A stretch of 64,000 bases of DNA from Cyanobacteria bacterium P01_E01_bin.6 (GCA_039194035.1 JBCCWF010000001.1:3970-67969), one strand, 5' to 3'. Positions 1 to 41,014 are shown, numbered from the stretch's first letter. Notes: a model not told the origin generated them from the letters alone. A program made the numbers and translations.

Positions 1-119
1 ACTTTCTTTCAAGGCGATGAACGAAAAATCTCTTCTATCGATTGGTTTGCTGAAAGGAAAATACATTCAATCGATAGCTCAGGAGCAATGAGTATTCCAT
101 TGCTAAAACTTCCTTTGAG

Positions 120-527
120 ATGCTTTTACTTCATCGGAGTTGCACGATGATTCCAGGCCTTGACTCCTATTTTGATGGCAGTGAGTGGATCGAGCACGAC
201 CACTACAAGAGGGAGAAGGCGCGGCGTGCTGAAATTCAGAAATCAAAGTCAACACGATCTAAAAAACTCTTCACAAAGTCGTCATCTCTAAAGAAAAAAA
301 AGAAGGTTCTAAAAACTCTATTTTTAGATTACGAAGATGGTCTTTTATTTGAAGAATTAATGGCTCTAATTATGGGTGAAAACCCCAACGAAGTAGGACA
401 AAGCGACCTGGAATGGGGCGCTGTGATGGTTAACGAAATGGTCAAAAAAGGGATTTTATCTACTCGAAATAATCTGTTGATTTGGCGAGTTCAAGAACTA
501 GAGCTATTTAGTAGCGAAGCAGCATGA
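120..527 (+). CDS. hypothetical protein (prophage-borne), Lys-rich
   Basis: ORF track only. Lies in the phage-like block. No recognisable motif. Confidence 0.3.
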   Translation: MLLLHRSCTMIPGLDSYFDGSEWIEHDHYKREKARRAEIQKSKSTRSKKLFTKSSSLKKKKKVLKTLFLDYEDGLLFEELMALIMGENPNEVGQSDLEWGAVMVNEMVKKGILSTRNNLLIWRVQELELFSSEAA

Positions 528-764
528 TGATTTACCTTTCCATTCTTTTAGTAGGCATTTTGAGTTTTAGTCAAGGCCAGCAATGTCACGACAATAATCC
601 CGTTTGTACTGGGCCGAGACCAGAGAAAAGCTTGATTGTGGGAGGAAATTTATGACCACAGTTTTAGCGTTCTTCGTGTTGTTATTTCTGGGCGCGGTTG
701 TTGGTGTTTGCGCCATTGTCAGGGTTTCTGGTGTGGAAGATTTTGACGAAAGGGAGGGCGATCG

Positions 765-1844
765 ATGAGCGCCTACTACAACGAGAATGATCCAAACGCC
801 GCTGAATGGCTGCGGCAGCTAATTAAGTTAGGGGCGATCGCCCCTGGAGATGTAGACGAAAGGAGTATTGTAGATGTCCCTTCAATTGAGCTTAGGTCTT
901 ACACTCAGCACCACTTCTTCGCAGGCATTGGAGCCTGGTCATATGCCCTCCGATGCGCAGGATGGCCAGACGACAAACCCGTTGTCACCGGATCGTGCCC
1001 ATGTCAACCTTTCTCCAGCGCAGGCAAAAGAAAAGGGGCTGACGATGAGCGGGATCTCTGGTGGGCAATGTTTTGGCACATCCAGCAGTTGCAACCTCAA
1101 ACAATTATTGGTGAACAAGTTGCATCAAAGGATGGGCTCTCATGGTGGGACGTTGTTCAGTCTGATTTGGAAGGAGAGAACTACGCCGCAACTGCGTTCG
1201 ATCTATGCGCTGCGGGCATCAGCGCGCCGCACATCCGACAAAGATTGTTTTGGGTGGCAAACGCCAACGGTTCAAGACAGCAATGGGCGCGATCGCCACA
1301 ACCAAAGAAATGGTTCGGTGATTCCGTCTCTACTAGGGCAAGCAAGGCTAGCACATTGGCCTACCCCGACTGCGAACGAAGACAACAGGACTCCGGAGGC
1401 TCACCTAGAGATGAAGAGGCAGATGGGAGTCCGAGACGGCAGCCAAGCAAACCGAAAAGCAATAACAAGTCTTGCTGTGATGTCAAAGATTGCTTATGCA
1501 GGGGAACAGACAACGATTCAGTTGAGCGGATGGGCAACGCCAAAGGTTCAGAATGCGAATGGACCAGGGGAGCACGGCAATGGAGGTCAGGATCTGCAAA
1601 CTCAGGCATCTGGAGTGACGCGATCTGGATCACCTGCCAAGACGGCAAGCAAAGGCCAATTAAATCCGGCATTTTCCCGCTGGTTGATGGGATTGCCCCC
1701 GATCTGGTGCGAGGCGGCAATCCTTGCATTCAGACAGAAGCGACGGCGGAAGCCCGCACGATGCGAATCAAAGGATACGGAAACGCAATCGTAGCGCCGC
1801 TGGCGATCGCCTTTATTCAATCCGTGATGGAGGTTGAACAGTGA
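765..1844 (+). CDS. DNA (cytosine-5)-methyltransferase
   Basis: N-terminal FAGIGAW resembles C5-MTase motif I (FxGxG). PCQPFSSAGKRKG matches the catalytic PCQ motif IV. Stop overlaps the next gene start by 4 nt. Confidence 0.7.
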   Translation: MSAYYNENDPNAAEWLRQLIKLGAIAPGDVDERSIVDVPSIELRSYTQHHFFAGIGAWSYALRCAGWPDDKPVVTGSCPCQPFSSAGKRKGADDERDLWWAMFWHIQQLQPQTIIGEQVASKDGLSWWDVVQSDLEGENYAATAFDLCAAGISAPHIRQRLFWVANANGSRQQWARSPQPKKWFGDSVSTRASKASTLAYPDCERRQQDSGGSPRDEEADGSPRRQPSKPKSNNKSCCDVKDCLCRGTDNDSVERMGNAKGSECEWTRGARQWRSGSANSGIWSDAIWITCQDGKQRPIKSGIFPLVDGIAPDLVRGGNPCIQTEATAEARTMRIKGYGNAIVAPLAIAFIQSVMEVEQ

Positions 1845-2389
1845 CTCATCCCTTCCCAAATGACAAGTACAACATCATCTACGCCGATCCTCCCTGGACG
1901 TATCGAGACAAAGCAAGCGCCGGTAAGCGCGGTGCATCTCACAAATACAAAGTGATGGCATTAGAGGAGATCTGCGCATTGCCAGTGCAGGCGATCGCCG
2001 CTGACAACTGCCTGTTGGCGATGTGGTGGGTTCCGCCGATGCCAAAGGAAGCGCTACAGGTTGTAGAAGCTTGGGGTTTTGCCTTCAAAACGATGAAGGG
2101 GTTCACCTGGGAAAAGGTGAGTAAGAACGGTAAGCACCTCATAGCAATGGGCAACTACACCCGTGCCAATACAGAGGATTGTTTGATTGCCGTTAAGGGT
2201 AAGCCAAAGCGAATAGACGCAGGGGTGCGGCAATTTATTCAGTCGGAACGCAGGGCGCATTCACAGAAGCCTGATGAAGTGCGCGATCGCCTTGTTCAGC
2301 TCATGGGCAATGTTCCGAGGATTGAGCTTTTTGCACGCAGTACAGCTCCAGGGTGGCACGCCTGGGGAAATGAATTAGCACCGTTTTAG
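1841..2389 (+). CDS. MT-A70 family N6-adenine DNA methyltransferase
   Basis: YADPPW catalytic motif (DPPW) near the N-terminus. Size ~180 aa is typical of phage MT-A70-type methylases. Confidence 0.7.
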   Translation: MTHPFPNDKYNIIYADPPWTYRDKASAGKRGASHKYKVMALEEICALPVQAIAADNCLLAMWWVPPMPKEALQVVEAWGFAFKTMKGFTWEKVSKNGKHLIAMGNYTRANTEDCLIAVKGKPKRIDAGVRQFIQSERRAHSQKPDEVRDRLVQLMGNVPRIELFARSTAPGWHAWGNELAPF

Positions 2390-2400
2390 GAGAGCGTGAG

Positions 2401-2703
2401 ATGAGTCAAGAAGATTTATTAGAAAGACTTGCCAGCGCCTTTGAGCGCAATAACCAACTACTTGAGCAGCTTATTGTAGATCGTCAACCTAAGCCCAAGT
2501 GCATGCCTTTGGCAGATGCATGGAAGGAACTGGGGTACAAGAACTACAAGGCTTGCTACCGAAAGGTGATCAATGGCCATTATCGAGTAGGTCATGAGGT
2601 TGAGGATCGGCGATCGCCCGGTGCCTACAATCCAGAGTACTGGCTCGACATAGAAGCATGTCGAGAGAGAAACAAAGTTATTCCGGCAAAAAGGAGTGTA
2701 TAG
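2401..2703 (+). CDS. hypothetical small phage protein
   Basis: ORF immediately after the methylase. No motif. Confidence 0.35.
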   Translation: MSQEDLLERLASAFERNNQLLEQLIVDRQPKPKCMPLADAWKELGYKNYKACYRKVINGHYRVGHEVEDRRSPGAYNPEYWLDIEACRERNKVIPAKRSV

Positions 2704-2715
2704 GACTTGCGAATA

Positions 2716-3813
2716 TTATTCAATCTTCTCTAAAAATGCTTCAGTCGCTTGAGCTTCGCTAATGTGTTTCTGGTACGTACTGAGATAAACACTTGGATCA
2801 TGCCCCAACCATTTGGCCGATACTGCTGTAGGGAAACCATATTTCAAGGCCGCTCGGATTGCGAATGCATGGCGATAGCTATATGGTTTATGTGGGTTCT
2901 TCTGACGAGTAAACGCTCTGGCAGTGCGATCGCCATACTCTTTATTGGTTCTGACTTTTAGATTAGGTGGACTGCCTTCGGCTAACTCCCACCGTTCAGC
3001 CCATTCTGGTGGCAATGGTGGAATCGATTTCCTGGCTCCGGTTTTGCCATCTGTGATTTCACACATCATCACCGTGCGATCGCCCGTATCAAGACTCACA
3101 ACTTTCGCAAACCAAACTTCATGATCTCTGAGTCCATATGTTGCCATCATTGCGGCGACATGTTTCCACTCAGGATTTTTCATTGAGTCGATCGCTTTCT
3201 CGATTTCTTCATCACTTGGAATATCACGATCGACATTTCTAGGATTGTAGTTTCCTTGATACGGCTTGAGATCGATTTTAATTCCAGCGAACTCGGCAAG
3301 TTTATTCATTCGCTGGCAGCATACTTGCCGACTACGGCTATCAACCTTGGTTTTTTGAACTGCCAAAATAATTGCATCAGCAGTGAGATCGGATTTTGGG
3401 TTTAGTTTTGTAAAGGCTGGATACCAGAATCGCTCTTTCCAATCAATTTCCGCTTGTTCTCCAGTGGTCTTGATGAGGTTTTGCAGAGCATATTTTTTGA
3501 ATGCTTCTATCCATGCTTGGCAGCTATCGGCGTTATGGCGATCGCCCTGCACTTCCAGCCAGCTAAATCGCTTCTGTGCAATCAGTGCCCCAAGCTCCAT
3601 GGCTTTAGACTCGGCGTACTCCAGTCCCGCTGGATTAGCATAGATTTTGAGGCTAATCTCTTGCTGATGTGCCTTCAATTTCCCGCTTCCTGGCTTCGGC
3701 GGCAACGTTCCCCTAAGATAGAGTCGCTCCCCTCGCTGCATCACCACCAACCCAGCAGCGGACGCTCTAAGCCGTTGATTGACAGCCTCCAGAGTTAGCT
3801 TGCGCTTCACCAT
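2716..3813 (-). CDS. int: tyrosine-type site-specific integrase/recombinase
   Basis: The C-terminal catalytic region carries R...HxxR...Y-type residues (YSYRHAFAIRA ... LGHDPSVYLSTYQKHI). Length 365 aa. Adjacent to a tRNA. Confidence 0.85.
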   Translation of the reverse strand: MVKRKLTLEAVNQRLRASAAGLVVMQRGERLYLRGTLPPKPGSGKLKAHQQEISLKIYANPAGLEYAESKAMELGALIAQKRFSWLEVQGDRHNADSCQAWIEAFKKYALQNLIKTTGEQAEIDWKERFWYPAFTKLNPKSDLTADAIILAVQKTKVDSRSRQVCCQRMNKLAEFAGIKIDLKPYQGNYNPRNVDRDIPSDEEIEKAIDSMKNPEWKHVAAMMATYGLRDHEVWFAKVVSLDTGDRTVMMCEITDGKTGARKSIPPLPPEWAERWELAEGSPPNLKVRTNKEYGDRTARAFTRQKNPHKPYSYRHAFAIRAALKYGFPTAVSAKWLGHDPSVYLSTYQKHISEAQATEAFLEKIE

Positions 3814-3930
3814 TTTTCACTAATCCTTCACTAGAAAAGGCGGCATCGTGCGACATCGTATGCCATCAGAAGGAAGCCACTAACCAAAAGAATAATGGCT
3901 GGGAAAGGCTTTGGCAACGGATTTACTGAA

Positions 3931-4003
<73 letters not shown>

Positions 4004-4119
4004 AAATATGCTAACAGCATGCCGTTAACACCTAATGGGAAATGCGCGATTTTCACGCGCGAGTAATGATTATAGCAGACTAATTTGTCACATCCACCTC
4101 AACGTTCAAAAGTTAAGCT

Positions 4120-4827
4120 ATGGTCTTAGGGCTATGCCCATCACTCATCAAGCCAACGTTAAGCCTCAAGCCAGCGTCGCCATCACATATTTTTATGCCA
4201 TCAGGTCGCACTCACGATCGTGTTACGCTTTGGAGCCTTCCTGTCGTTGCCGTCTTAAGCCTTCTACGAACCCGAAGCAGCAGCTTCACGTTGCTATTGC
4301 TTGCAGGTTTTTTGTTTGGTGCTTTGATGCTAGGGCCAGATTTAGATACGCGATCAATTCATTACAAGCGGTGGGGAGTTCTTCGGTGGATTTGGATTCC
4401 CTATCGGGGCAGCATGCGTCATCGATCGCCCATCTCTCACTGGCCGATTGTAGGGACGGTCTTACGGGTTATCTACGTGTTGATCTGGGCTTTTTTGCTG
4501 TGCTTAGGCAGCATGGCTCTGGTCAATGAGGTTTTTCAGATTGGCTGGACATGGAATGATATCGCAACCATCATTGGGCGATCGCTCCATACTCATCAAT
4601 CTGGTTGGGTTGCCGTGGGTATTGGTCTTGAAGCGGGAGCACTAAGCCACTATTTGGCAGATTGGGGGGTGTCAACGAGTAAGCGTGTGCGTCGCCATTA
4701 TCCAACTGAAGGGATTTGGGCGCTAAGACGAATTCTTAACCCCACTCCCAAGAAACGGACGACTAGAAAAAGGCAAAAAAGGCGATCGCCAGCGGCACCA
4801 TCCTCCTCGAGAAACCGGAATCAGTGA
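4120..4827 (+). CDS. hypothetical polytopic membrane protein (possible metal-dependent hydrolase-like, DUF2227-like); true start probably internal (MPSGRTHDR)
   Basis: Several hydrophobic segments and a basic C-terminal tail. Weak family resemblance only. Confidence 0.35.
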   Translation: MVLGLCPSLIKPTLSLKPASPSHIFMPSGRTHDRVTLWSLPVVAVLSLLRTRSSSFTLLLLAGFLFGALMLGPDLDTRSIHYKRWGVLRWIWIPYRGSMRHRSPISHWPIVGTVLRVIYVLIWAFLLCLGSMALVNEVFQIGWTWNDIATIIGRSLHTHQSGWVAVGIGLEAGALSHYLADWGVSTSKRVRRHYPTEGIWALRRILNPTPKKRTTRKRQKRRSPAAPSSSRNRNQ

Positions 4828-5002
4828 GCACGCGTATGACGTCGCGATCGCCTATCATCGCTTTTATTCAGTATTTTCAAAAGAATAAAAATTTAAACTA
4901 CAAAAAAACTCGATAGATTCAAGTAAATTTGAATCTATCGAGTCTATTAATCATGACTTCCGCTATAGCAATAACTTACGATGTCGAGATTGTATTTTAA
5001 GC

Positions 5003-5037
5003 CGGGATTGTGGAGGGCGGAGCACCTCACAATCCCG
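5003..5037. terminator. stem-loop between convergent genes (CGGGATTGTG...CACAATCCCG)
   Basis: 10-bp inverted repeat seen in the sequence, located in the convergent intergenic region. Confidence 0.3.
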
Positions 5038-5061
5038 TTAAAATTTTCTCGACTTACGTGA

Positions 5062-5166
5062 TAAGTAGATAGACATAATTAAACGTATCCTTCCAAATCC
5101 TGTGCCGTCCGCGCAGCGGGCGGCACAGGATTTGGGGTTTTGGTTTTAATGACGTCCAGGTACTTA
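5062..5166. repeat. MITE-like dispersed repeat, family A copy 1 (TAAGTAGATAG...hairpin...GGTTTTAATGACGTCCAGGTACTTA)
   Basis: Shares termini (TAAGTA / TACTTA TIRs), the internal block CATAATTAAACGT, and a GC-rich hairpin AATCCTGTGCCG-CCGCGCAGCGGGCGGCACAGGATT with the other family A copies listed below. Confidence 0.7.
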
Positions 5167-5260
5167 AGCCTTACTTCGAACATTTTATGAGAGTAGAACA
5201 TCCTCATAAAAATGCATCAATTTGAATTAATGTGACAACCTGTATCCATCAATTTAGTGA

Positions 5261-5656
5261 TTAGAAAGGGCAAACAGGAGTGCTATTTGCATTGAGGTTG
5301 ATTGTACGAGTTGCATCACTCACGATGAATGGCTGGTCACCACCACGAGTTTCGCGAACCATCTCAGGAGATAGGCTCATGCAGCCTGCAACGGCTTCTC
5401 CCCATGCTGCAACATCCTCAGACATCGCATCGGTAATGGGGGTATCGGTCGTAACTGAAGCATCTTGAACAATGCTGATTTCCATTGGAAGCGCATATCT
5501 CCAAGGGGTGACAGGAATAGATGGAAGAGAGACGTCACGGCCTCCAACAATTGTCTCCTCATCAGGAGAATAGGTTTCTGCCAACTCTGCATTTGCAGGA
5601 AGAGCAAAACCAATCGCAGCTGCTGCGACGCCTAAGATGGCAATTTTTCTTAACAT
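5261..5656 (-). CDS. small secreted hypothetical protein (signal peptide MLRKIAILGVAAAAIGFALPANA)
   Basis: Start set at the internal Met that gives a canonical signal peptide. No family match. Confidence 0.4.
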   Translation of the reverse strand: MLRKIAILGVAAAAIGFALPANAELAETYSPDEETIVGGRDVSLPSIPVTPWRYALPMEISIVQDASVTTDTPITDAMSEDVAAWGEAVAGCMSLSPEMVRETRGGDQPFIVSDATRTINLNANSTPVCPF

Positions 5657-5913
5657 TTTTTGTACTCCTAGTGATTGGGAAAATGTTCGTCTACAACGAG
5701 GTATCGCCATCGCTAATGAGATATTCAATAATAGAAGCCCTGCCAAAGAAATTACTTCGATAGGATCTTAAGGCTATCTCAATATTCATGGCGACTGTTT
5801 CAATATTCCCAAAAAATATTGCGTGTGTAGCAAAAGGTATTGAAACTGATTTGTGATTTTTCTTCTTCAGAAAAACACGTATATATGAGGTTGTCAAAGA
5901 ATTTGGGGAAATG

Positions 5914-7542
5914 TTAATTACCCCTCTCGGTATGGTTTAAATTTTCTTCAATTTCTATTAGTAAAGAATATGTGAGTGAATGGTCTGGGTTGATCCGAAT
6001 GGCTGTTTCAAGAGCTTCTAATGCATCGTTTGTTTGACCGAGCGCATATAGGGCATGGCCTTGTCCAGCTAGGATGTCGGGGTGATTTGGGGCTTTCGTA
6101 AGCGCTTCATTGTAGGCAATTAACGCATCTTGAAAATGCCCGAGGCTCGCCAATGCAGTGCCTCGGTTATACCAGCCGATATATGAATCCGGCTGACGGG
6201 CGATCGCCTCATCTGCCGAATCGATCGCTTCCTCATACCGTTGGAGATACCAGAGAATAACGCTGCGGTTTGCCCACGCATTTTCTTGTTGGGGAGCTAA
6301 GGCAACCACCTCATCATAGGCTTGGAGCGCAGGTTCATAATCGCCTTGACTTCGGTATGCAATGGCTTGGTTGAACCAGGCGGTCACCAGGCTTCGATCA
6401 ATCGTGAGTGCCTGATTGGATGCAGCGATCGCCTGCTCATACTGTTCAAGATGCCAATGAATGGCGGCCTGATGGGCCCAAGCGGGGGCATAAGTGGGCA
6501 AAAAGCCCACCGCTCGATTTGATAGTGCGAGGGCTGTGTCAAAATTGCCAAGATGAGCATGGCTGATGCTTTGTTGATCCCATACCTGACCGATACCCAG
6601 AGGCCCCCACGTGCCGTCTCCGGCGATCGCCAGTTCACATGCCTCTAGAGCTTCGCTGTGGCGTTCCAATCGATTGAGCACATCACAGCGAAAAACGTGA
6701 GCCTTGCTGGAGCTGGGATTGAGTCGAACGGCTTGCTCAAGGGCATGGAGGCTATCGTCATTGTGGTTTTGAGCAGCAAGCAAGAGTCCCTGTTCTAGCC
6801 ATCTGTCAAAACTGGTGTCGTCAGCGCTGAGGGTGAGGTCGTAGGCGGCGATCGCCCGGTCTGGATCACCAATCTGAGCAAGAGCAATCGCCCGATGATA
6901 GAGCGCCATCTCTGGAGACGTGTTGCCCCAATCTTGGTTGTACCCGAGAGCCGCATCGCAGTTGATCAGGGCTTCACGAGGTTTTCCTAGGTAGTTGAGT
7001 GCTTCACAGCGGCGAGTGCGGAAACCGGAGCGGTCTGGATCGAGATGGATAACGTGGTTGTAACTGGCGATCGCCCCTTCCCAATCCTCCATTCCCGCGA
7101 GGGCGAGTCCTCGATATTCCCAAGCATCATCGGGACTATTTGTTCCCCAATGGCGATCGTGGGCAAGGGCATCGTCACAGGATGCAAGTGCCTCATCATA
7201 CTGTTCTAGAGTGACCTGAATTTGGCACTGGGCTAGGTAACTGGGCGAATCGTCAGCGCCTTCGTTGATGGCGGTATAAATGGCAACGAGTGCTTCCGCA
7301 GGTTCGTCGAGCTGTTGGAGGAGTGCGGTGTAGGTTAGCCAGAGATCGTCATCGTTGGGTTCTATCCCGAGGGCTTGTTCGCAGGCGATGCGGGCGGTTT
7401 CTAGAGCATTGGCGCCGATGAGGATATGACAGCGATCGCGCCAATAGTCCTCGTCATCAATGCCGTAGAGTCTAGCCGGAGTCTGGGCGAGGGCAGGGGT
7501 GGTGAGGAGGAGTGTCAGTGGGAGTGCGATGAGAAGGCGCAT
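5914..7542 (-). CDS. TPR-repeat protein with N-terminal signal peptide
   Basis: Signal peptide MRLLIALPLTLLLTTPALAQ. Many 34-residue repeats with the W-LG-Y / A-Y--A-P signature (e.g. AIAAYDLTLSADDTSFDRWLEQG). Confidence 0.7.
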   Translation of the reverse strand: MRLLIALPLTLLLTTPALAQTPARLYGIDDEDYWRDRCHILIGANALETARIACEQALGIEPNDDDLWLTYTALLQQLDEPAEALVAIYTAINEGADDSPSYLAQCQIQVTLEQYDEALASCDDALAHDRHWGTNSPDDAWEYRGLALAGMEDWEGAIASYNHVIHLDPDRSGFRTRRCEALNYLGKPREALINCDAALGYNQDWGNTSPEMALYHRAIALAQIGDPDRAIAAYDLTLSADDTSFDRWLEQGLLLAAQNHNDDSLHALEQAVRLNPSSSKAHVFRCDVLNRLERHSEALEACELAIAGDGTWGPLGIGQVWDQQSISHAHLGNFDTALALSNRAVGFLPTYAPAWAHQAAIHWHLEQYEQAIAASNQALTIDRSLVTAWFNQAIAYRSQGDYEPALQAYDEVVALAPQQENAWANRSVILWYLQRYEEAIDSADEAIARQPDSYIGWYNRGTALASLGHFQDALIAYNEALTKAPNHPDILAGQGHALYALGQTNDALEALETAIRINPDHSLTYSLLIEIEENLNHTERGN

Positions 7543-26816: not shown

Positions 26817-28634
26817 ATGGTTTCGTCTGCCTATCGCTTTCTCGGCTCAATTAAGCTTGCTGTGCCTCTCTTGGCTGCCATCGTTGGCATTCTGATTTGG
26901 GCAACACTTTATGAGTCAACTGTTGGGTCTGCCCTCGTCCAGCAAGAGGTTTACAAAAGCCCTTGGTTTGGAGCGTTGATGTTTATGCTGGCCATGAACT
27001 TGGGCGTGTCAGCCATTAGTCGATACCCCTGGAAAGGCACTCGAAAGGTCGGCTTTGCCCTAGCGCATTTGGGACTCATTGTTCTGATTGCAGGCTCAGC
27101 AGCGGTCATTCACCTGAGTGTAGAAGGCATGATGCTGCTTCGAACCGACCAAGGCGCAAATAGCCTAGTCCGTGTGGACGGGGATTTATTAGACGTGGTC
27201 ACTCCTGATGGGCAGTCTGTCCAGACAGATCTGATGATCAAGCCTGACAACTCAATCATTCCGTCTCGCGTTGCAGGGTTGACTATTCTAGGCTACGAGG
27301 AAAATACGATTCGCACGGTCAGTTTTGAGGAAGGAGAAACGGTCGAAAATCCCGCCGTACGCATCAGTCTCAAGAGCGATCGCATGGGGCAGCTGACGGA
27401 GCGCTGGCTGGCGGCATCTCCCTCCATGTATCAGCAAGAAAATCTTGGCCCCGTGCGGCTTGAATTGTTACGGGTCAGTTCTGACGACGTTCTCCAGCAC
27501 TATTTGGCTGCGCCTGATGCACCCACTGCTGCAGGGCGATTTGGGACGCTGACCGTGACGGTTGATGGGAATGGGCGATCGCTCGACATTGAATCGTTTT
27601 TACAGACGCCTGTGGAGGTCACGCCAGACATCACCCTCACGGTGATGGAGTTTTGGCCAGACTTCCGGTTAGATGCTCAAAATCAACCTGCTACAGCATC
27701 ACAGCAGTTGCGGAACCCCGCTGTACAGCTTGATGTTTCCCGTGGAGAGAATCAAGAGCGTTGGTTTGTTTTTGCCAGTAGTGAGTTCGATCCTGTTCGC
27801 ACGGTCGTATCCGGATCAAGCCTGGAAAATATCGATATTCAATATGCGGCACAACCTCAGCGCCAGCAAAATCTCTTCCAGGTCATTGCTGCGCCTAACG
27901 AAAAGTTCTTCTATACAGCCCAATCATCGAAAGCGTTTACGTCTGGATCGTTGGACGTAGGTCAACCCATCTCCCCTGGCTGGGTTGATTTTCAGATCAC
28001 CCTGGAGGACGTGGTGTCCCATGCCGTGCCCAATCGTCAGGTGATTCCCGTAGACGCCAATGAAATCCAGGGTTCTCCATCGCTCCAGGTCGCCACACCC
28101 GATGGCGAAACGCATTGGTTGACCTGGGCAGAACCGACCACTCTGTCTACTCCGTCTGGGGATTACTTCGCGGCGTTTAGCCCCAAAATGCTGCAGTTGC
28201 CCTTTGCAGTCGCGCTTGATGATTTCATCGTGGAACGCAATGAGGGAAGTGAGTCTGTGGCCATGTGGACGAGTCAGATTCAGATCCAAGATGCTCACCG
28301 AGGAGAACTGAGTGAGCGACGAGTATGGATGAATCACCCAACCTGGTATCAGGGATGGAAAATGGCTCAGGCCTCCTGGAATCCTGGGGATTTACGCCAA
28401 TCAACCTTACAGGTGAAACGGGAACCATGGTGGGTCACCGCCCTGACGTGGAGCGGTTCTTTACTGGTTGTGATGGGTATTGTGGTGATGTTCTATGGCG
28501 CTTCTGTGGTGAAAGCGGTGAATAAGGTCCTGCCAACGACTTCTACTGATCCATCGATGAACGAAAAGACTCAGGGAAATGCAGAGGGCGATCGCCCTCC
28601 AGTTCCCGCTCCAGCATTGATTACCCAAGACTAG
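26817..28634 (+). CDS. ccsB: cytochrome c biogenesis protein CcsB/Ccs1 (ResB family)
   Basis: N-terminus YRFLGSIKLAVPLLAAIVGILIWATLYES is the ResB/Ccs1 signature. Large soluble central domain, C-terminal TM. 605 aa. Confidence 0.8.
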   Translation: MVSSAYRFLGSIKLAVPLLAAIVGILIWATLYESTVGSALVQQEVYKSPWFGALMFMLAMNLGVSAISRYPWKGTRKVGFALAHLGLIVLIAGSAAVIHLSVEGMMLLRTDQGANSLVRVDGDLLDVVTPDGQSVQTDLMIKPDNSIIPSRVAGLTILGYEENTIRTVSFEEGETVENPAVRISLKSDRMGQLTERWLAASPSMYQQENLGPVRLELLRVSSDDVLQHYLAAPDAPTAAGRFGTLTVTVDGNGRSLDIESFLQTPVEVTPDITLTVMEFWPDFRLDAQNQPATASQQLRNPAVQLDVSRGENQERWFVFASSEFDPVRTVVSGSSLENIDIQYAAQPQRQQNLFQVIAAPNEKFFYTAQSSKAFTSGSLDVGQPISPGWVDFQITLEDVVSHAVPNRQVIPVDANEIQGSPSLQVATPDGETHWLTWAEPTTLSTPSGDYFAAFSPKMLQLPFAVALDDFIVERNEGSESVAMWTSQIQIQDAHRGELSERRVWMNHPTWYQGWKMAQASWNPGDLRQSTLQVKREPWWVTALTWSGSLLVVMGIVVMFYGASVVKAVNKVLPTTSTDPSMNEKTQGNAEGDRPPVPAPALITQD

Positions 28635-31011: not shown

Positions 31012-31104
31012 GCCATTATTAAACGTGCTGTTCCAACCCCTATGCCGCCTTCGCAGTGGGCGGCATAGGGGTTGGGGATTTGGTTTCATTCTGTCCAGGT
31101 ACGT
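31012..31104. repeat. MITE-like repeat family A copy 3 (hairpin variant CCCCTATGCCGCC / GGCGGCATAGGGG)
   Basis: TTAAACGTGCTGTTCCAA...GGTTTCATTCTGTCCAGGTAC. Confidence 0.6.
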
Positions 31105-31189: not shown

Positions 31190-31522
31190 ATGGATGATAA
31201 AAAACAGCTTTTAGCTCAAACAATGGCGTTGTTAATGTCAACAACACCTGAAACAACACTGGGTCGATTTTTGAATTTTTGCCTTGCTACGAAAGTTGAA
31301 ACGGCGATCGCCCACAAGACTCCCTTTGAAATAGCTGAAGAATTAATGGAGCATCCTGAAAAACTCTCCCAATGGATCTCTGAAACAATTGATGGCGATG
31401 ATGATTATACAGTTGATGAAATGGTTGCCCTTTCAGATATGCACATCCAAAATCCTCATACTTTCATGGCTCAATTAATAGAAGAATTGAATCAAATTCA
31501 GTTGGACGACGTAAATCCTTAA
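31190..31522 (+). CDS. hypothetical acidic protein
   Basis: ORF only. Confidence 0.3.
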   Translation: MDDKKQLLAQTMALLMSTTPETTLGRFLNFCLATKVETAIAHKTPFEIAEELMEHPEKLSQWISETIDGDDDYTVDEMVALSDMHIQNPHTFMAQLIEELNQIQLDDVNP

Positions 31523-31650
31523 ATCACTGTTCAATTACTTAGGTAATGAGAGCTTTCTACTTGCTCCCCATCAATCATGCGGCGATGCCAGGATGCTTTC
31601 CTAAAGCGACCTTGTAGATGCGTATTCTTTTTACTTGTGATTTTTCATTG

Positions 31651-31690
31651 AGCGATCGCCATAAACAATTAAATGTTTGTGGCGATCGCT
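31651..31690. promoter_or_regulatory. near-perfect palindrome built around two HIP1 sites (AGCGATCGCCATAAACAATTAAATGTTTGTGGCGATCGCT), ~300 nt upstream of the globin gene
   Basis: Seen in the sequence. Candidate operator. Confidence 0.3.
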
Positions 31691-31979
31691 TTCTTCCTAT
31701 TGGTTAAAGGGAAAGGCATGTTATGTCAAAAAGGTGAGAAATGATTAAAGATCTGACATCGATTCGCATCGATGCGGTTTATGCAACTCGTGCAAGCAAG
31801 TTCTGCATGACCTGCTGGTATTTGTATCAGAAAATGCAAAACAGCTCATTTTTTTTTCGTAATCTCTCATCTTGATAGCAGTGTTTTTCATCCATACACT
31901 TGCCAGAAAAGCATCTTTTATTTGCGTGAAATTTGCCTCAAAAAAGTGCTTCTCTATGTGTCGCCAAGGAGTCTAGGTC

Positions 31980-33014
31980 ATGTCTCTTCAAGTTGAACTT
32001 CTCGAAACAAGTTTCGAGAAAGTTAAGCCCCATGCTAATGAATTCGTTACGAGTTTTTATGACAATTTGTTCGCTGACTACCCTGCAGCAAAACCCCTGT
32101 TTGAGCACACCGATATGCCCAAACAAATACAGCAGCTTAAGGGGGGGCTCGTCATGGTGGTGGAGAATCTGCGCAACCCTGAAGTGCTCACCAAAGCGCT
32201 TGGTGGACTCGGCGCTCGCCATGTCAAGTATGGTGCGCTGCCTGACCATTACCCCCTAGTCGGCAACAGTCTGCTCAAAACCTTTGATCAGTACCTCAAG
32301 GAAGACTGGACGCCCGAGGTTAAGCAGGCTTGGGTTGACGCCTACGGCGCGATCACCGCGCTGATGCTCGAAGGCGCTGATTACTCTGAGGAACAGGTGG
32401 ATCTCTCTGCGGCTCCCCCTGCGACAGCCGCAGCGGCTGTCGACGAACCTGCCGAAGAGTCAGGCGGGTTGAAGGTTGAACTGTTAGAAGAAAGTTTTGG
32501 CAAGGTTGCGCCCCAGGCCGACGAATTTGTGGCAAGCTTCTACGACAATCTGTTCACCGACTATCCGGCATCCAAGCCACTGTTTGAGCATACCGATATG
32601 CCCAAGCAAATGCAGCAGCTCAAGGGTGGTTTGGTCATGGTGATTCAAAATCTGCGCAAGCCTGAGGTGCTCAGCAAGGCTCTGGGAGGGCTGGGTGCAC
32701 GACACGTAAAATATGGTGCGTTGCCAGAGCACTATCCACTCGTTGGGAACAGCCTGCTCAAGACATTTGGTCAGTATCTCAAAGAAGATTGGACCCCTGA
32801 GGTGAAGGGCGCGTGGGTCGATGCCTATGGTGCCATTACTGCGCTCATGTTGGAAGGAGCTGATTATTCCAAGGAAGACGTTCAGCTTGAGACTCCAGTT
32901 GCTGCGGTTGCCACTGCTGCTCCGCAGGAAGATGACGGGTCCAATGTTGCGCCTATTGTCGGTGGTCTTGTGGGTGGCGGCATTCTAATTGCTCTTTTGC
33001 TTATTCTTCTTTAA
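31980..33014 (+). CDS. tandem two-domain globin (bacterial haemoglobin-like) with C-terminal hydrophobic membrane anchor
   Basis: Two ~150-aa repeats ~80% identical to each other. Each resembles Vitreoscilla Hb (FYDNLFADYPAAKPLFEHTDM ... LGARHVKYGALPDHYPLVGNSLLKTF ... AWVDAYGAITALML). C-terminal tail PIVGGLVGGGILIALLLILL. Confidence 0.7.
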   Translation: MSLQVELLETSFEKVKPHANEFVTSFYDNLFADYPAAKPLFEHTDMPKQIQQLKGGLVMVVENLRNPEVLTKALGGLGARHVKYGALPDHYPLVGNSLLKTFDQYLKEDWTPEVKQAWVDAYGAITALMLEGADYSEEQVDLSAAPPATAAAAVDEPAEESGGLKVELLEESFGKVAPQADEFVASFYDNLFTDYPASKPLFEHTDMPKQMQQLKGGLVMVIQNLRKPEVLSKALGGLGARHVKYGALPEHYPLVGNSLLKTFGQYLKEDWTPEVKGAWVDAYGAITALMLEGADYSKEDVQLETPVAAVATAAPQEDDGSNVAPIVGGLVGGGILIALLLILL

Positions 33015-33031
33015 GACAACAGTGATAAGTT

Positions 33032-33685
33032 ATGGCGTTCAATTTTGGAAGAATGCTTAGACGAAAATCGTTCTTCAGTCTTCAAACGGCCATTATTGCT
33101 GCTGGCATTATTTTACTGGTTGGGCTTGTTGGGGTCTTCGCGCTGGAAACGGATCAGCAGACGATCTTCTTACCTGGTGAAACATCTGAAGGCCATTTTT
33201 TGTTTGAAGCATCCTGTGCATCCTGTCATGAGGGGTTTAAGCCGGTGACGAACGAGACATGCATGCGTTGTCATGAAGCCGAAATGGCGGACGACAAGCA
33301 TGGCCCCAAGAAGTTTCGTGATCCTCGTTGGGCTGCTGACCTCGAAAAGCTTGAAGTGTTGACCTGTACAACTTGCCACAACGAACATGTGCATATGTTT
33401 GGGCGGGGTGTTCATCTTCAGCCAGATTTATGTATGGCTTGTCATCAGGGCATCATTGAGGGCGATATGCAGAGCCATGACGGATTTACTCCTGATGGCT
33501 GCTGGACAGCAGGGTGCCATAACTTCCACGATCACCGTTCGATTTCCACTGGGTTCCTCGCTGACACGCTCGATCAGCCTCCGATGTTGCCTGTTCAGGA
33601 GCTGCCAATCCTGGACGTGATAACAACACTGGACTCAGCACCCGACGCTGATTTGTGGGATGAGTTTTTAGGAGGTGAATCATGA
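33032..33685 (+). CDS. membrane-anchored pentaheme c-type cytochrome (four CxxCH + one CX4CH)
   Basis: N-terminal TM IIAAGIILLVGLVGVFAL. Heme motifs CASCHE, CMRCHE, CTTCHN, CMACHQ and CWTAGCH. Confidence 0.7.
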   Translation: MAFNFGRMLRRKSFFSLQTAIIAAGIILLVGLVGVFALETDQQTIFLPGETSEGHFLFEASCASCHEGFKPVTNETCMRCHEAEMADDKHGPKKFRDPRWAADLEKLEVLTCTTCHNEHVHMFGRGVHLQPDLCMACHQGIIEGDMQSHDGFTPDGCWTAGCHNFHDHRSISTGFLADTLDQPPMLPVQELPILDVITTLDSAPDADLWDEFLGGES

Positions 33686-34485
33686 GGCGATCGCTCGTTC
33701 TCTTGGTTGCCATCCTGATGGGATTGGTCGGATATATGCTGGGACATCCACAGCCAGTCTTCGCTCATGCGTCTGAGGCTGACCTTCAGGAGATTCAAAC
33801 ACTCTGGGAAGGCAGTGTTCATGCTCTGGCTGATGTGAATTGCTCAAGTTGTCATCAGCAGGATGAGACGAATGCATTTATTGCTCATCCTGATCATGAA
33901 AGCTGTCAATCCTGTCATGACGCACAGGTCGATACTTTCTTACTCGGGAAACACGGGATCCGGTTGTTCGAAGGGATGAGTCCACTGACTCCTGCCATGG
34001 CTCGATTGCCGATGAAGGCTGACGCGCACAATCGCCAAATGACCTGCAATACTTGCCATGATGTTCATTCGGTCAATACCGTGCAAGCCTCTGTTGACTC
34101 GTGTCTGACCTGCCATAACGATACACACTCGTTGAACTATGAAAATTCCAGACACGCTGAGCTGTTTATGGCGGATCAAGGCTTGCCTCGCCCGTCAAGC
34201 CAGGCCGTCAGTTGTTCGACCTGCCATATGCCCCGCCAAGATTTGGGTAGCCCGAGCAGCCCCCAAGTTGTGGTAAATCACAACAACACGTTTACCCTAT
34301 TACCGCGCGATCGCATGGTCATTGAAGTCTGTATGAACTGCCATGGCGTTGAGTATAGCTACAACAGTATTTTTGACGATGATTTGGTAGAGGCAAATTT
34401 CGACAAGCCTCCTAGCCTATCGCTAGAGACCTTTGACTTGGTGCGTACCTTTGAAAAACAGCGTACCAGCCAGGATAGCGAATAA
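33682..34485 (+). CDS. periplasmic hexaheme c-type cytochrome
   Basis: Signal peptide. CSSCH, CQSCH, CNTCH, CLTCH, CSTCH, CMNCH. Start overlaps the upstream stop (ATGA), indicating translational coupling. Confidence 0.75.
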   Translation: MRRSLVLLVAILMGLVGYMLGHPQPVFAHASEADLQEIQTLWEGSVHALADVNCSSCHQQDETNAFIAHPDHESCQSCHDAQVDTFLLGKHGIRLFEGMSPLTPAMARLPMKADAHNRQMTCNTCHDVHSVNTVQASVDSCLTCHNDTHSLNYENSRHAELFMADQGLPRPSSQAVSCSTCHMPRQDLGSPSSPQVVVNHNNTFTLLPRDRMVIEVCMNCHGVEYSYNSIFDDDLVEANFDKPPSLSLETFDLVRTFEKQRTSQDSE

Positions 34486-34610: not shown

Positions 34611-35276
34611 ATGTTTATGAAAACTATCAATCAATGGATGGATGCGATTCGCACCCGGACAGTCGCATTCATTGCGATTATCCTAGCGGTTGCAGTTACT
34701 GCAATTTCTTGTAGTGGTAGTCCTGCTCCCGACGCAGGAGAAACCGTTAGCGGCATCTCTCCCGAAATCGTTGTGGATTATATTCATACGGTTGCTGCAT
34801 CCGATCGGACGGCTTACACCAAGCATGTTGTGGCTCGTCTGAAAACATTGGAAGGCAACGATAAGCCAGATGGTGTTGTTCCAGCTGAAGCCACCGAAGC
34901 TTGGCAGCAAACCGACGGTATTCCACTCCCCGCTCAGATGTTCCGACTCGGAGCAGAGCTAGCGTCAGAAGGTGGCGATTTTACCATTGGTCTCATTTCC
35001 CCTTGGAATATTAATGACAGCCAGGCTCCGAAGGGAGAATTTGAAGAAGTTGGGATGCAGGAAGTGATTGACACTGGTGAACCCTACAAAGGGTATCAAG
35101 AAATTGGTGGTCAACAATACTATTCTGCAATTTACCCCGACCCTGCGGTTGCCGATGCCTGTGTCAGCTGTCACAACAATCATCCGACCCATCAGGAACG
35201 GTATCCAGACAAAGTGTTCGAACTGAATGATGTGATGGGTGGCGTTGTCATCAACCTTCCTCTAGAGGGTGCTTAA
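34611..35276 (+). CDS. c-type monoheme protein, Tll0287/DUF3365-like PAS-type heme sensor domain; N-terminal anchor or lipoprotein signal
   Basis: Single CVSCHNNH motif near the C-terminus, as in Tll0287-like proteins. ~220 aa. N-terminal hydrophobic segment ending ISCSG. Confidence 0.5.
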   Translation: MFMKTINQWMDAIRTRTVAFIAIILAVAVTAISCSGSPAPDAGETVSGISPEIVVDYIHTVAASDRTAYTKHVVARLKTLEGNDKPDGVVPAEATEAWQQTDGIPLPAQMFRLGAELASEGGDFTIGLISPWNINDSQAPKGEFEEVGMQEVIDTGEPYKGYQEIGGQQYYSAIYPDPAVADACVSCHNNHPTHQERYPDKVFELNDVMGGVVINLPLEGA

Positions 35277-36297: not shown

Positions 36298-36774
36298 ATG
36301 GCTTCTGGACGTAGTGAACCGCCAGCAATGCGACGCATTGGTGTCACGTTTATTGTTCTGATTGGGTTTGCAATTGCAACCTTTTTTCTAACCCGCCCAG
36401 TCACAGCCTCGTCAAGCATGTCCCCTGTCTCTGGCCTGGTGATGCTGAAAGCCATGGCACAGGCATCCGTTCCCTATGAAGAGGCGATCGCCAGCGGTAA
36501 ACCCACCTTCATGGAGTTCTACGCAGACTGGTGCACGACTTGTCAGTCCATGGCATTAACGGTTGCGGAGCTGCACACTCACTATGGGGCAGATCTGAAT
36601 TTTGTCATGCTGAATATTGACGACCCCAAATGGCGATCGCAAGTTGAACAATTTCATGTCGGTGGAGTCCCTGAGTATTTCTTACTGGACAACGACCAAT
36701 CAATACATCGCTCGTTTATTGGTCGGGTTCCTTACGGGATTATGGCTCAATCCGTAAATAATCTAATAAATTAA
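36298..36774 (+). CDS. thioredoxin-like thiol:disulfide oxidoreductase (CcsX/ResA/TlpA-like, membrane-anchored)
   Basis: N-terminal TM then the thioredoxin fold with WCTTCQ (CxxC) active site. Confidence 0.65.
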   Translation: MASGRSEPPAMRRIGVTFIVLIGFAIATFFLTRPVTASSSMSPVSGLVMLKAMAQASVPYEEAIASGKPTFMEFYADWCTTCQSMALTVAELHTHYGADLNFVMLNIDDPKWRSQVEQFHVGGVPEYFLLDNDQSIHRSFIGRVPYGIMAQSVNNLIN

Positions 36775-37634: not shown

Positions 37635-38552
37635 TTGACTGTTATGCAACCGATGACTTCGAAAGCACTCATCCGCCTTGTGGGAGTGTTGCTCATGACA
37701 CTCCTCCCGTATGGATGTAGCACTGTTGGCAAAATGGCATCACTTCCAAGCGTGGTTGCTCAACGGTCAGATACCGTTGATGTCAGCGATCGCATTCAAC
37801 CCTTTGCCCAGGTAGATGTGGTGTATCTCGGGGAGACCCATGACAGCACTGCTGATCATGATGCTCAGCTACAGATTGTTCAGGCACTCTACGCCCAAAA
37901 TCCAGAGATGGCGATCGCTCTGGAAATGTTTCAACACCCTTTCCAGGAAAGTCTGGATAACTATATCAGTGGCACTATCGACGAAGAAACGCTTCGCGAA
38001 CAAACTCAATATGACTTGCGATGGGGATTTCCATGGGAATACTACGCTCCGATACTGCGTTTTGCGAGAGAGCATCAAATTCCGTTGCTTGCTCTCAATG
38101 CTCCATCCGAAGTTGTGAGTAAGATTGCCCGCGAAGGACTCGACAGTTTAAGCGAATCAGAGCAACAGGTCATTCCTCCCCGGTCAGAAATCCGAACTGA
38201 CAACGAGGGCTACCGTGAATACGTTGGGGCCGTGTTTGGACATGCGCACCACAGTGGCCATTCTGGCATGAGTTTTGAGAATTTTTTCTCGGCTCAAGTG
38301 GTTTGGGATGAAACGATGGCTGAACAGATTACTGCGTTTCTTACCCGTGAGCCTGGCCATCAAGTGGTGGTGCTGGCGGGTCAAGGCCATGTGATTTACG
38401 GCTATGGCATTCCAGATCGAGTGGCTCGTCGGTTGGGTGACTCCATCGAGCAATATACGATCTTGCTCAATCCCATCGGGGAGTTCCTTGATGAAGGAGA
38501 AGGGGCGATCGCTGATTCCTTTTGGTTCAGTGAAAATGGACAGAAGCCATAA
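37635..38552 (+). CDS. ChaN-family (Tiki/haem-binding uptake, PF04187-like) lipoprotein
   Basis: Lipobox LLPYGCST. Conserved VVYLGETHDSTADHDAQLQIVQAL ... ALEMF and GHAHHSG motifs typical of ChaN/DUF399. Confidence 0.6.
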   Translation: MTVMQPMTSKALIRLVGVLLMTLLPYGCSTVGKMASLPSVVAQRSDTVDVSDRIQPFAQVDVVYLGETHDSTADHDAQLQIVQALYAQNPEMAIALEMFQHPFQESLDNYISGTIDEETLREQTQYDLRWGFPWEYYAPILRFAREHQIPLLALNAPSEVVSKIAREGLDSLSESEQQVIPPRSEIRTDNEGYREYVGAVFGHAHHSGHSGMSFENFFSAQVVWDETMAEQITAFLTREPGHQVVVLAGQGHVIYGYGIPDRVARRLGDSIEQYTILLNPIGEFLDEGEGAIADSFWFSENGQKP

Positions 38553-39916: not shown

Positions 39917-41014
39917 TTGGGAGAGATACGAATGGATCTGGTCACACTTCAAGGTTGGCTTGACAATGCGTCCTTTGCCGTCATGTTCGCAACGATGTTG
40001 ATCTACTGGGTTAGCGCTGCATTTCCTGGTCTGTCTGTGCTGAGCAGCTTGGGAACAACTGGGATGGCGATCGCCAACTTGTTGATAGCAGCCCTCCTCA
40101 CCGCTCGCTGGATAGAAGGCGGATACTTCCCATTGAGCAATTTGTATGAGTCCCTATTTTTTGTGGCCTGGGGCATCACGGCGGTTCATTTGCTGGCAGA
40201 GCGCATGAGCCAGAGCCGTTTGGTTGGGACGGTTACAGCGCCTGTTGTCATGGGAATTACAGCATTTGCAGCGCTCTCGTTGCCCGACACAATGCAGACA
40301 TCAGAGCCACTGGTGCCTGCTCTCAAGTCCAATTGGTTGATGATGCATGTCAGCGTGATGCTCATCAGCTATGCGGCTCTGATGGTTGGGTCTCTGATGG
40401 CGATCGCCTTTTTGGTGATCACACGAGGCCAAGCGGTTGAGCTAAAAGGGAGTTCGGTGGGAACAGGAAGCTTCCGAACTAGACGGGAAAAGTTGAAACC
40501 GATTCAATTACCAGAAGATGGAGAGATGTCGTCATCCATTCCCAGTGAGTCCTTGCTGTCGTCCCCGGCCCAAGCTTTTTCTCCCTCTTCAGGGGCCACA
40601 GCTGTCTTAGCGACATCTCCCGTGGCAACTGCTGCGAGCAAGCAGACCTCCATTCCTTCCCCTATAGCGGCTGCACCCCTATCTCCCCAGCGATTGACCT
40701 TGGCAGATACCTTGGACAACATTAGCTATCGCATCATTGGATTAGGATTTCCACTCCTCACCATCGGCATTATTGCCGGAGCGGTTTGGGCCAATGAAGC
40801 GTGGGGGTCTTACTGGAGCTGGGATCCAAAGGAAACATGGGCGCTCATTACGTGGTTAGTGTTTGCGGCCTATCTCCATGCTCGCATTACCCGAGGATGG
40901 CAGGGACGTCGTCCTGCGATCCTTGCCGCGTCAGGATTTTTTGTGGTGTGGATTTGCTATCTCGGCGTCAATATTCTGGGCAAGGGACTGCACAGCTATG
41001 GCTGGTTTTTCTAG
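39917..41014 (+). CDS. ccsA: CcsA-family cytochrome c biogenesis protein, second paralogue, with Ser/Pro/Ala-rich insertion
   Basis: WWD domain [29 protein letters not shown]. Internal low-complexity insert [36 protein letters not shown]. Confidence 0.7.

Follow-up and report, generated by a model that had tools for sequence, protein, structure and literature searches.

A c3-type CX4CH haem motif in a split 11-haem cytochrome of cyanobacteria and the second System II linked to its operon

The closest described counterpart of the haem site discussed here is haem 2 of Desulfovibrio cytochrome c3, a soluble tetrahaem protein of 107 amino acids (aa) with two CX4CH motifs. In solved c3 chains, the first CX4CH site reads CGTAGCH (2CTH set) or CATAGCH (1J0O set). 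CX4CH is included among known haem motifs (bioRxiv 10.1101/2024.01.05.574438), and NCBIfam holds a curated Geobacter family named 'CxxxxCH/CxxCH domain' (TIGR01904). For haem attachment, the nearest parallel is Wolinella succinogenes, where extra fused CcsBA-type synthetase genes (NrfI, CcsA1) adjoin their presumed multihaem substrates, besides the housekeeping enzyme. In these documented cases of a dedicated System II lyase, the motif served is CXXCK (NrfI) or CX15CH (CcsA1), not CX4CH (PMC12285233). The subject of this study is a pentahaem c-type cytochrome gene within 64,000 nucleotides of DNA from Cyanobacteria bacterium P01_E01_bin.6 (GCA_039194035.1 JBCCWF010000001.1:3970-67969), the whole of which is called the window. 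Its fifth haem motif is CWTAGCH, a CX4CH motif, and its operon lies near the genes of a second System II, ResB' and CcsA'.

With a probability of roughly 0.7, the fifth site is a genuine c3-type haem site in a split 11-haem cytochrome, its CX4CH form is the majority state of the family, the motif drives no lyase of its own, and the second System II was kept for the operon or arrived with it. The gene and its motifs are as follows, with the stated motif residues invariant across an alignment of 97 sequences:

33032..33685, plus strand: pentahaem c-type cytochrome, 217 aa, open reading frame (ORF) from ATG to TGA; N-terminal half of a split 11-haem cytochrome
33062..33145, plus strand: predicted N-terminal transmembrane anchor, about aa 11-38, a hydrophobic stretch after RRK; AlphaFold2 (AF2) helix 11-37, pLDDT 83-97
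33215..33229, plus strand: haem 1 motif CASCH, aa 62-66 (C62, C65, H66)
33260..33274, plus strand: haem 2 motif CMRCH, aa 77-81 (C77, C80, H81)
33365..33379, plus strand: haem 3 motif CTTCH, aa 112-116 (C112, C115, H116)
33431..33445, plus strand: haem 4 motif CMACH, aa 134-138 (C134, C137, H138)
33500..33520, plus strand: haem 5 motif CWTAGCH (CX4CH), aa 157-163 (C157, C162, H163)

Because no Cys stands three residues before C162 in the window's protein, the fifth site can be read solely as CX4CH. Direct reading of the sequence, together with the AF2 helix, bears out the first-pass annotation of this DNA, which had described four CxxCH motifs plus CWTAGCH in a transmembrane-anchored pentahaem cytochrome. 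The basic residues and the hydrophobic helix at the N-terminus fit an N-in membrane anchor, as judged from sequence and model. The protein matches Pfam PF14537 (Cytochrom_c3_2) above the gathering threshold, at 28.3 bits against a cut-off of 25, and the match spans residues 56-139, that is, haems 1-4 only.

The order of spacer lengths, 2,2,2,2,4, is the same in all 120 listed pentahaem homologues of 65-100% identity, and CWTAGCH closes the series in 110 of them, with the others differing from it by one residue. A protein annotated in a metagenome-assembled genome of a marine cyanobacterium is 100% identical, and the named close homologues are all cyanobacterial and titled 'cytochrome c3 family protein'. 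A genome scan with one genome per species found 184 relatives, of which 80 were kept, all in cyanobacteria and including Moorena, Coleofasciculus, Leptolyngbyaceae, Geitlerinema, Prochloron, Acaryochloris and Spirulina. In this set, which is biased to CX4CH because the motif itself was one of the two search patterns, site 5 reads CWTAGCH in 79 loci and CWTAACH in one. The check on orthologues that the first-pass annotation had proposed thus finds CX4CH in every close homologue and every cyanobacterial locus, and this conservation rules out a chance occurrence of the motif.

The 97-sequence alignment extends to relatives of about 25% identity. Besides the five Cys/Cys/His triplets, full invariance in it is limited to H55, H119, H149 and H166; H90 is nearly invariant (>90%). 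The pentahaem half therefore has one extra conserved His for each haem, the number that bis-His ligation of five haems would require, and on this pattern all five are probably ligated in that way.

More distant relatives came from a profile search of 1.84 billion cluster representatives, which gave 468 matches. About 120 of these distant representatives cover site 5, with CX4CH in about 101 (about 85%) and plain CxxCH in some 16-18, and the downstream context CHN[YF]HD is identical in both groups. Further 11-haem homologues carry CX4CH at site 5 in 115 of 115 cases. Over 350 sequences the spacer consensus is x-[T/S]-[A/S]-G, with Gly as the last spacer residue in 347. A canonical CxxCH in orthologues, named by the first-pass annotation as evidence against its reading, is absent from the cyanobacterial orthologues and present in the minority of distant representatives just described. 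Its occurrence at the same position indicates that site 5 is a genuine haem site and that CX4CH and CxxCH have been interchangeable over evolutionary time. Its sequence marks CWTAGCH as a true, conserved c3-type haem site of the classic kind, from which we infer haem occupancy, and CX4CH appears as the ancestral or majority state of the whole 11-haem family, not as a cyanobacterial peculiarity.

The site resembles haem 2 of Desulfovibrio c3 in its CX4CH motif, its x-T-A-G spacer and its place in a run of closely spaced, predicted bis-His haems, in keeping with the earlier remark that such motifs are known from that protein. The two belong to the same Pfam clan, with the family matching Cytochrom_c3_2, Cytochrom_CIII and Cytochrome_C7. 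Unlike the soluble c3, the window's protein is a membrane-anchored pentahaem half with a single CX4CH. In the proposed model, C157 and C162 would form the thioether bonds, H163 would supply the proximal ligand to haem 5, the last of the series, and the two extra spacer residues relative to CxxCH would form a small loop closing on the almost invariant Gly. This haem would lie outside the cytoplasm, in a pentahaem subunit anchored to the membrane. That subunit would be the N-terminal half of an electron-transfer cytochrome with 11 haems, made from two coupled genes (penta- and hexahaem) in cyanobacteria and as one protein of 400-480 aa in other phyla.

The other half is encoded immediately downstream:

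33682..34485, plus strand: hexahaem c-type cytochrome, six CxxCH motifs, own signal/anchor; C-terminal half of the split 11-haem cytochrome; Pfam c3_2, Paired_CXXCH and c554 matches

The pentahaem stop codon overlaps the hexahaem start by 4 bp (ATGA, 33682-33685), and the two genes are probably translationally coupled. Most of the 468 profile-search matches are proteins of 400-480 aa with 11 haem motifs. Against one 433-aa 11-haem protein from Thermoanaerobaculia (P0123), the pentahaem protein matches at residues 34-201 (42% identity, E 5e-47) and the hexahaem protein at residues 188-428 (38% identity, E 2e-52). These collinear matches to its two halves identify the cyanobacterial genes as a split version of a single-chain 11-haem cytochrome.

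The 11-haem family is a large one: more than 3000 clusters belong to it at E <= 1e-10, and its carriers include Burkholderiales, other Gammaproteobacteria, Entotheonella and Acidobacteriota. It has no informative name. Pfam Cytochrom_c3_2 is matched by 97 of the 97 aligned members (best E 1.9e-20), and no curated NCBIfam model covers the family among these same scanned members. It may correspond to the periplasmic 11-haem cluster of a survey of the Desulfuromonadia cytochromome (bioRxiv 10.1101/2024.01.05.574438). Its members, titled 'cytochrome c3 family protein', align end to end with the penta- and hexahaem proteins, share CX4CH at site 5, and have Tll0287-like and globin genes as neighbours. 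Outside cyanobacteria, by contrast, the cytochrome is a single gene, and a flavoprotein resembling the N-terminal part of NirB takes the place of the tail-anchored tandem globin and Rieske protein found in cyanobacteria. As a separate observation, one 831-aa relative (P0126, L085 10001-12496) has a major facilitator superfamily (MFS) transporter domain fused to the 11-haem cytochrome.

Two other groups of multihaem proteins share features with the halves. The NapC/NirT/NrfH and TorC-type quinol dehydrogenases likewise have a single N-terminal transmembrane helix and a small multihaem domain on the outer membrane face, and these families use only CxxCH. Assignment to the NapC/NirT/NrfH type was rejected, as there is no match to Cytochrom_NNT or to the TIGR03153 NrfH model, and weak NrfH matches appear in 6 of the 97 relatives. 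The hexahaem half has the pattern CxTCHMP ... HN ... CxxCH in common with decahaem MtrA/DmsE, NrfA and octahaem nitrite reductases. For this half, E-values of the family profile against MtrA, octahaem nitrite reductases and NrfA range from 1e-10 to 1e-6, with scores far below family thresholds, and 76 of the 97 members weakly match the DmsE-family model, far below its cut-off. A PDB sequence search with the pentahaem orthologue profile gave chance-level matches only, and with a wider profile the modules of MtrA, NrfA and octahaem nitrite reductases were linked to the hexahaem half only. The hexahaem half has neither CXXCK nor an obvious five-coordinate catalytic haem. It has six CxxCH motifs and six conserved extra His residues. 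A catalytic enzyme of this type was also rejected, given the absence of CXXCK and the equal numbers of conserved extra His and haems, and the 11 haems resemble a wire for electrons more than a site of catalysis.

The genes for haem attachment and the Rieske gene that accompanies them are as follows:

26817..28634, plus strand: ResB'/CcsB paralogue (System II); PF05140, 58.5 bits
28762..30507, plus strand: CcsA' paralogue of 581 aa; its periplasmic N-terminal domain is of the kind seen in fused CcsBA; PF01578, 103.5 bits
30519..31001, plus strand: small Rieske [2Fe-2S] protein, 160 aa, twin-arginine leader RRKF; PF00355, 48.6 bits; PetC-like 75 bits, far below cut-off
36298..36774, plus strand: membrane-anchored thioredoxin (WCTTC); PF00085, 51.8 bits; weak ResA, DsbE and slr1796 matches
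39917..41014, plus strand: housekeeping plastid-type CcsA, a comparator outside the operon; PF01578, 246.1 bits over the full profile

ResB' aligns to residues 14-117 and 215-326 of Helicobacter hepaticus CcsBA (7S9Y, E 9e-16). Residues 38-548 of CcsA' align to residues 291-801 of Bacteroides thetaiotaomicron CcsBA (25VK, E 4e-50) and to residues 407-925 of 7S9Y (E 3e-40). The pair thus extends along whole fused CcsBA structures and represents a split CcsBA-type synthetase with an architecture unlike that of the housekeeping enzyme. The housekeeping CcsA lies about 9 kb downstream of CcsA', lacks the periplasmic N-terminal domain of about 250 aa found there, and shares 42% identity with it in the WWD region only. 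The WWD motif of CcsA', WGRFWGWDPKETW, is intact and canonical, and the flanking His residues are kept in HVPT and PLHGR contexts. The anchored thioredoxin is a candidate apocytochrome thiol reductase of the CcsX/ResA-like kind, and by homology ResB', CcsA' and this thioredoxin constitute a complete extra System II. The arrangement recalls Wolinella, although the Wolinella synthetases are fused and this one is split into two genes.

Of the 41 cyanobacterial loci with full flanks, 38 have both ResB' and CcsA' at most 10 kb from the operon; CcsA' is absent within that distance in the other three (L023, L052, L070). ResB', CcsA' and the Rieske gene move as a block, usually divergent from the cytochrome operon and otherwise co-oriented with it. 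The first-pass annotation had placed the cytochrome beside a CcsA paralogue. The linkage holds, whereas immediate adjacency does not: CcsA' lies 2.5 kb upstream, apparently in a separate transcription unit. Two long perfect hairpins with T-rich tails, at 31031-31077 (20-bp stem) and 31650-31691 (18-bp stem), are terminator-like, and a promoter-like site follows at 31872-31900; together they suggest two transcription units, the lyase/Rieske block and the cytochrome operon. A scan of the window with Rfam found tRNA only, and hence no riboswitch to explain regulation.

The relation between motif and lyase was examined in 87 non-cyanobacterial 11-haem loci, 7 from exact look-up and 80 from a metagenomic search with an alignment of 14 closer sequences (1.04 Mb in total, 23 loci with at least 8 kb on both sides). 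The lyase screen combined tblastn at E <= 1e-5 with three ResB/CcsA queries and a search for the WWD motif, which would reveal CcmC or CcmF too. CX4CH stands at site 5 in 85 of these loci, and a ResB or CcsA homologue or a WWD-motif gene lies near the 11-haem gene in 0 of 87. The same screen is positive in 48 of 80 cyanobacterial loci and twice in the window. Lyase linkage is therefore a feature of the cyanobacterial operon and not a correlate of the motif. It is best read as dedication to the operon, with which the lyase was probably co-acquired, and nothing indicates that CX4CH by itself calls for a special lyase.

Three other explanations bear on these results. A fifth site without haem, in which CX4C-H would form a structural disulfide or bind a metal, leaving a tetrahaem cytochrome, could draw on the Pfam c3_2 match that ends with haem 4, but it is very improbable: the Cys-Cys-His triplet is invariant, a fifth conserved distal-type His is present, the spacer equals that of a crystallographically proven c3 haem site, and some distant homologues have a canonical motif at the same position. 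The first-pass annotation had suggested a specialised lyase and co-evolved maturation for CX4CH. In its full form, CcsA', ResB' and the thioredoxin would be a co-evolved lyase for this motif, with the housekeeping plastid-type CcsBA failing on the wider Cys spacing, by analogy with Wolinella NrfI and CcsA1 on CXXCK and CX15CH. Speaking for it are the linkage in nearly all fully flanked loci, the separate housekeeping CcsA in the same window, the place of CX4CH as the sole unconventional motif among the operon's 12 c-haem sites, and the precedent of substrate-dedicated System II isoenzymes (PMC12285233). The suggestion is not supported by the comparison across phyla, where the motif is nearly universal and no lyase gene is linked to it. 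The documented dedicated lyases serve the two other motifs only, CX4CH is common in c3-type cytochromes of organisms without a known motif-specific lyase, CcsA' is missing near three operons, and its WWD domain is canonical. We consider a motif-driven lyase unlikely.

It is somewhat more likely than not that the second System II is dedicated to the operon on grounds other than the motif. The reasons could be another compartment (cytoplasmic membrane and periplasm versus thylakoid lumen) or a capacity for densely packed multihaem substrates, with horizontal co-transfer. This explanation concerns the lyase only and is compatible with the account of the motif given above. ResB' and CcsA' rebuild the fused CcsBA architecture of Bacteroidota and Campylobacterota, unlike plastid-type CcsA; the ResB'-CcsA'-Rieske block moves together in different genomes, the thioredoxin belongs to the operon, and the multihaem family is very large and otherwise non-cyanobacterial. 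Set against this, no donor locus with both the 11-haem gene and a CcsBA set came up among the 87 non-cyanobacterial loci, so that co-transfer is a proposal.

Under our overall account, the second System II would have come with the operon or been kept for it as a whole. The operon has 12 c-haems, and their maturation probably takes place at another membrane, or on another scale, than that of the few monohaem cytochromes of photosynthesis. System I reportedly matured c3 in E. coli (Herbaud et al. 2000). Several points weigh against the account. No other haem motif in the cyanobacterial operon is non-standard, which makes CX4CH the sole candidate if the second System II is motif-driven. An unlinked dedicated lyase could lie elsewhere in the non-cyanobacterial genomes, of which about 10 kb to either side was covered, and this, with the chance that the plastid-type CcsBA is unusually strict, leaves the motif-driven lyase its small share of probability. 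Direct data on plastid-type CcsBA accepting CX4CH, or on System II maturing CX3CH or CX4CH, were not found in the searchable literature; these motifs go unmentioned in the eLife 2021 reconstitution paper. Fold searches with the pentahaem protein gave no structural match, which leaves the equivalence to c3 haem 2 as one of motif.

The remaining genes of the operon and its surroundings are as follows:

31980..33014, plus strand: tandem Hmp-type globin, hydrophobic tail at the C-terminus; two PF00042 stretches, 123.6 bits; 141 bits to the flavohaemoprotein globin domain
34611..35276, plus strand: Tll0287-like (DUF3365, sCache_haem) single-haem c protein, CVSCH; PF11845, 53.5 bits
35452..36279, plus strand: polytopic membrane protein with four invariant His; Ni_hydr_CYTB and DUF4405 matches weak, below cut-off
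37635..38552, plus strand: ChaN-like haem-binding protein; PF04187, 253 bits

Neighbour counts refer to 59 cyanobacterial loci with enough flank. The globin, which has two globin domains and no signal peptide, is directly upstream of the pentahaem gene in all 59, and the hexahaem gene is alongside it in all 59. The Tll0287-like gene follows the multihaem gene or genes in 59 of 59 cyanobacterial and 84 of 87 other loci. The membrane-protein gene is present in 59 of 59 and 40 of 87, respectively. Its H100, H114, H253 and H267 are invariant between the cyanobacterial protein, the Thermoanaerobaculia homologue and another metagenomic one (three phyla), and the protein could be a cytochrome b whose two haems carry electrons across the membrane. 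The thioredoxin gene accompanies the pentahaem gene in 53 of 59. The Rieske protein has a possible lipobox (AIAAC), and its gene, co-oriented with ResB'-CcsA', follows CcsA' in most cyanobacterial loci. A ChaN-like gene lies downstream of the operon in about 25 of the 80 cyanobacterial loci. A 110-aa ORF between the Rieske and globin genes (31190-31522), with one of the two hairpins on either side, was dropped from the system, as it is not conserved beyond the closest genome.

In other phyla, the 11-haem gene is found in related company. A single-domain globin homologue, 38% identical to the cyanobacterial one, usually follows it (63 of the 87 loci), and the NirB-N-terminal-like flavoprotein stands directly before the 11-haem gene in 77. 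One such flavoprotein (L086 8028-9998) has 656 aa with Pyr_redox_2, Rubredoxin_C and Fer2_BFD domains. In that locus (1-7140), and likewise in L087, the 11-haem module sits inside a nitrate/nitrite assimilation cluster with NirB, NirD, a Nas molybdoenzyme, an ANTAR regulator and an NrtA-type ABC transporter. In a Thermoanaerobaculia locus (L081 12529-13068, minus strand), a gene with H-NOX (HNOB) and V4R domains comes right after the trio of 11-haem, Tll0287-like and membrane-protein genes, a further hint of a link to nitric oxide (NO). Stand-alone Tll0287-type Cache-haem proteins are Cys/His-ligated with redox-type behaviour, and signalling-linked ones bind NO (bioRxiv 10.64898/2026.02.01.703092).

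These cross-phylum ties to a globin, a haem Cache protein and a NirB-like flavoprotein make a role in nitrogen oxide handling or redox balancing plausible. As a low-confidence best guess from gene content, the system would be a transmembrane conduit from a cytoplasmic globin, with NO or O2 chemistry, to the extracytoplasmic haems, with haem 5 near the hexahaem junction. A more far-reaching proposal is tentative and in our judgement rather doubtful. It holds that ResB', CcsA' and the thioredoxin are a horizontally acquired, substrate-dedicated System II isoenzyme, the first in an oxygenic phototroph, with the plastid-type CcsBA unable to mature the operon's c3-type cytochromes and CX4CH as one recognition problem. 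The operon itself would then encode an undescribed transmembrane electron conduit, in which a tail-anchored globin of the cytoplasm is coupled to 11 haems on the outer side, to a haem-Cache protein of the Cys/His type and to a Rieske protein.

Standard cyanobacterial bioenergetics is not known to include multihaem cytochromes. In the searchable literature no paper on cyanobacterial proteins of this multihaem type was found, and the operon appears to be uncharacterised there. The CX4CH motif itself carries little weight, being a textbook c3-type site that a large unnamed family conserves as its fifth. Unlike the 87 loci from other groups, the cyanobacterial version has its own System II set nearby, and many mat-forming and marine filamentous cyanobacteria carry the split 11-haem operon with its own CcsBA-type haem-attachment system. 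The operon, with its globin, 11 haems, haem-Cache protein, putative cytochrome b and Rieske protein, and its relatives across phyla are the more interesting lead.

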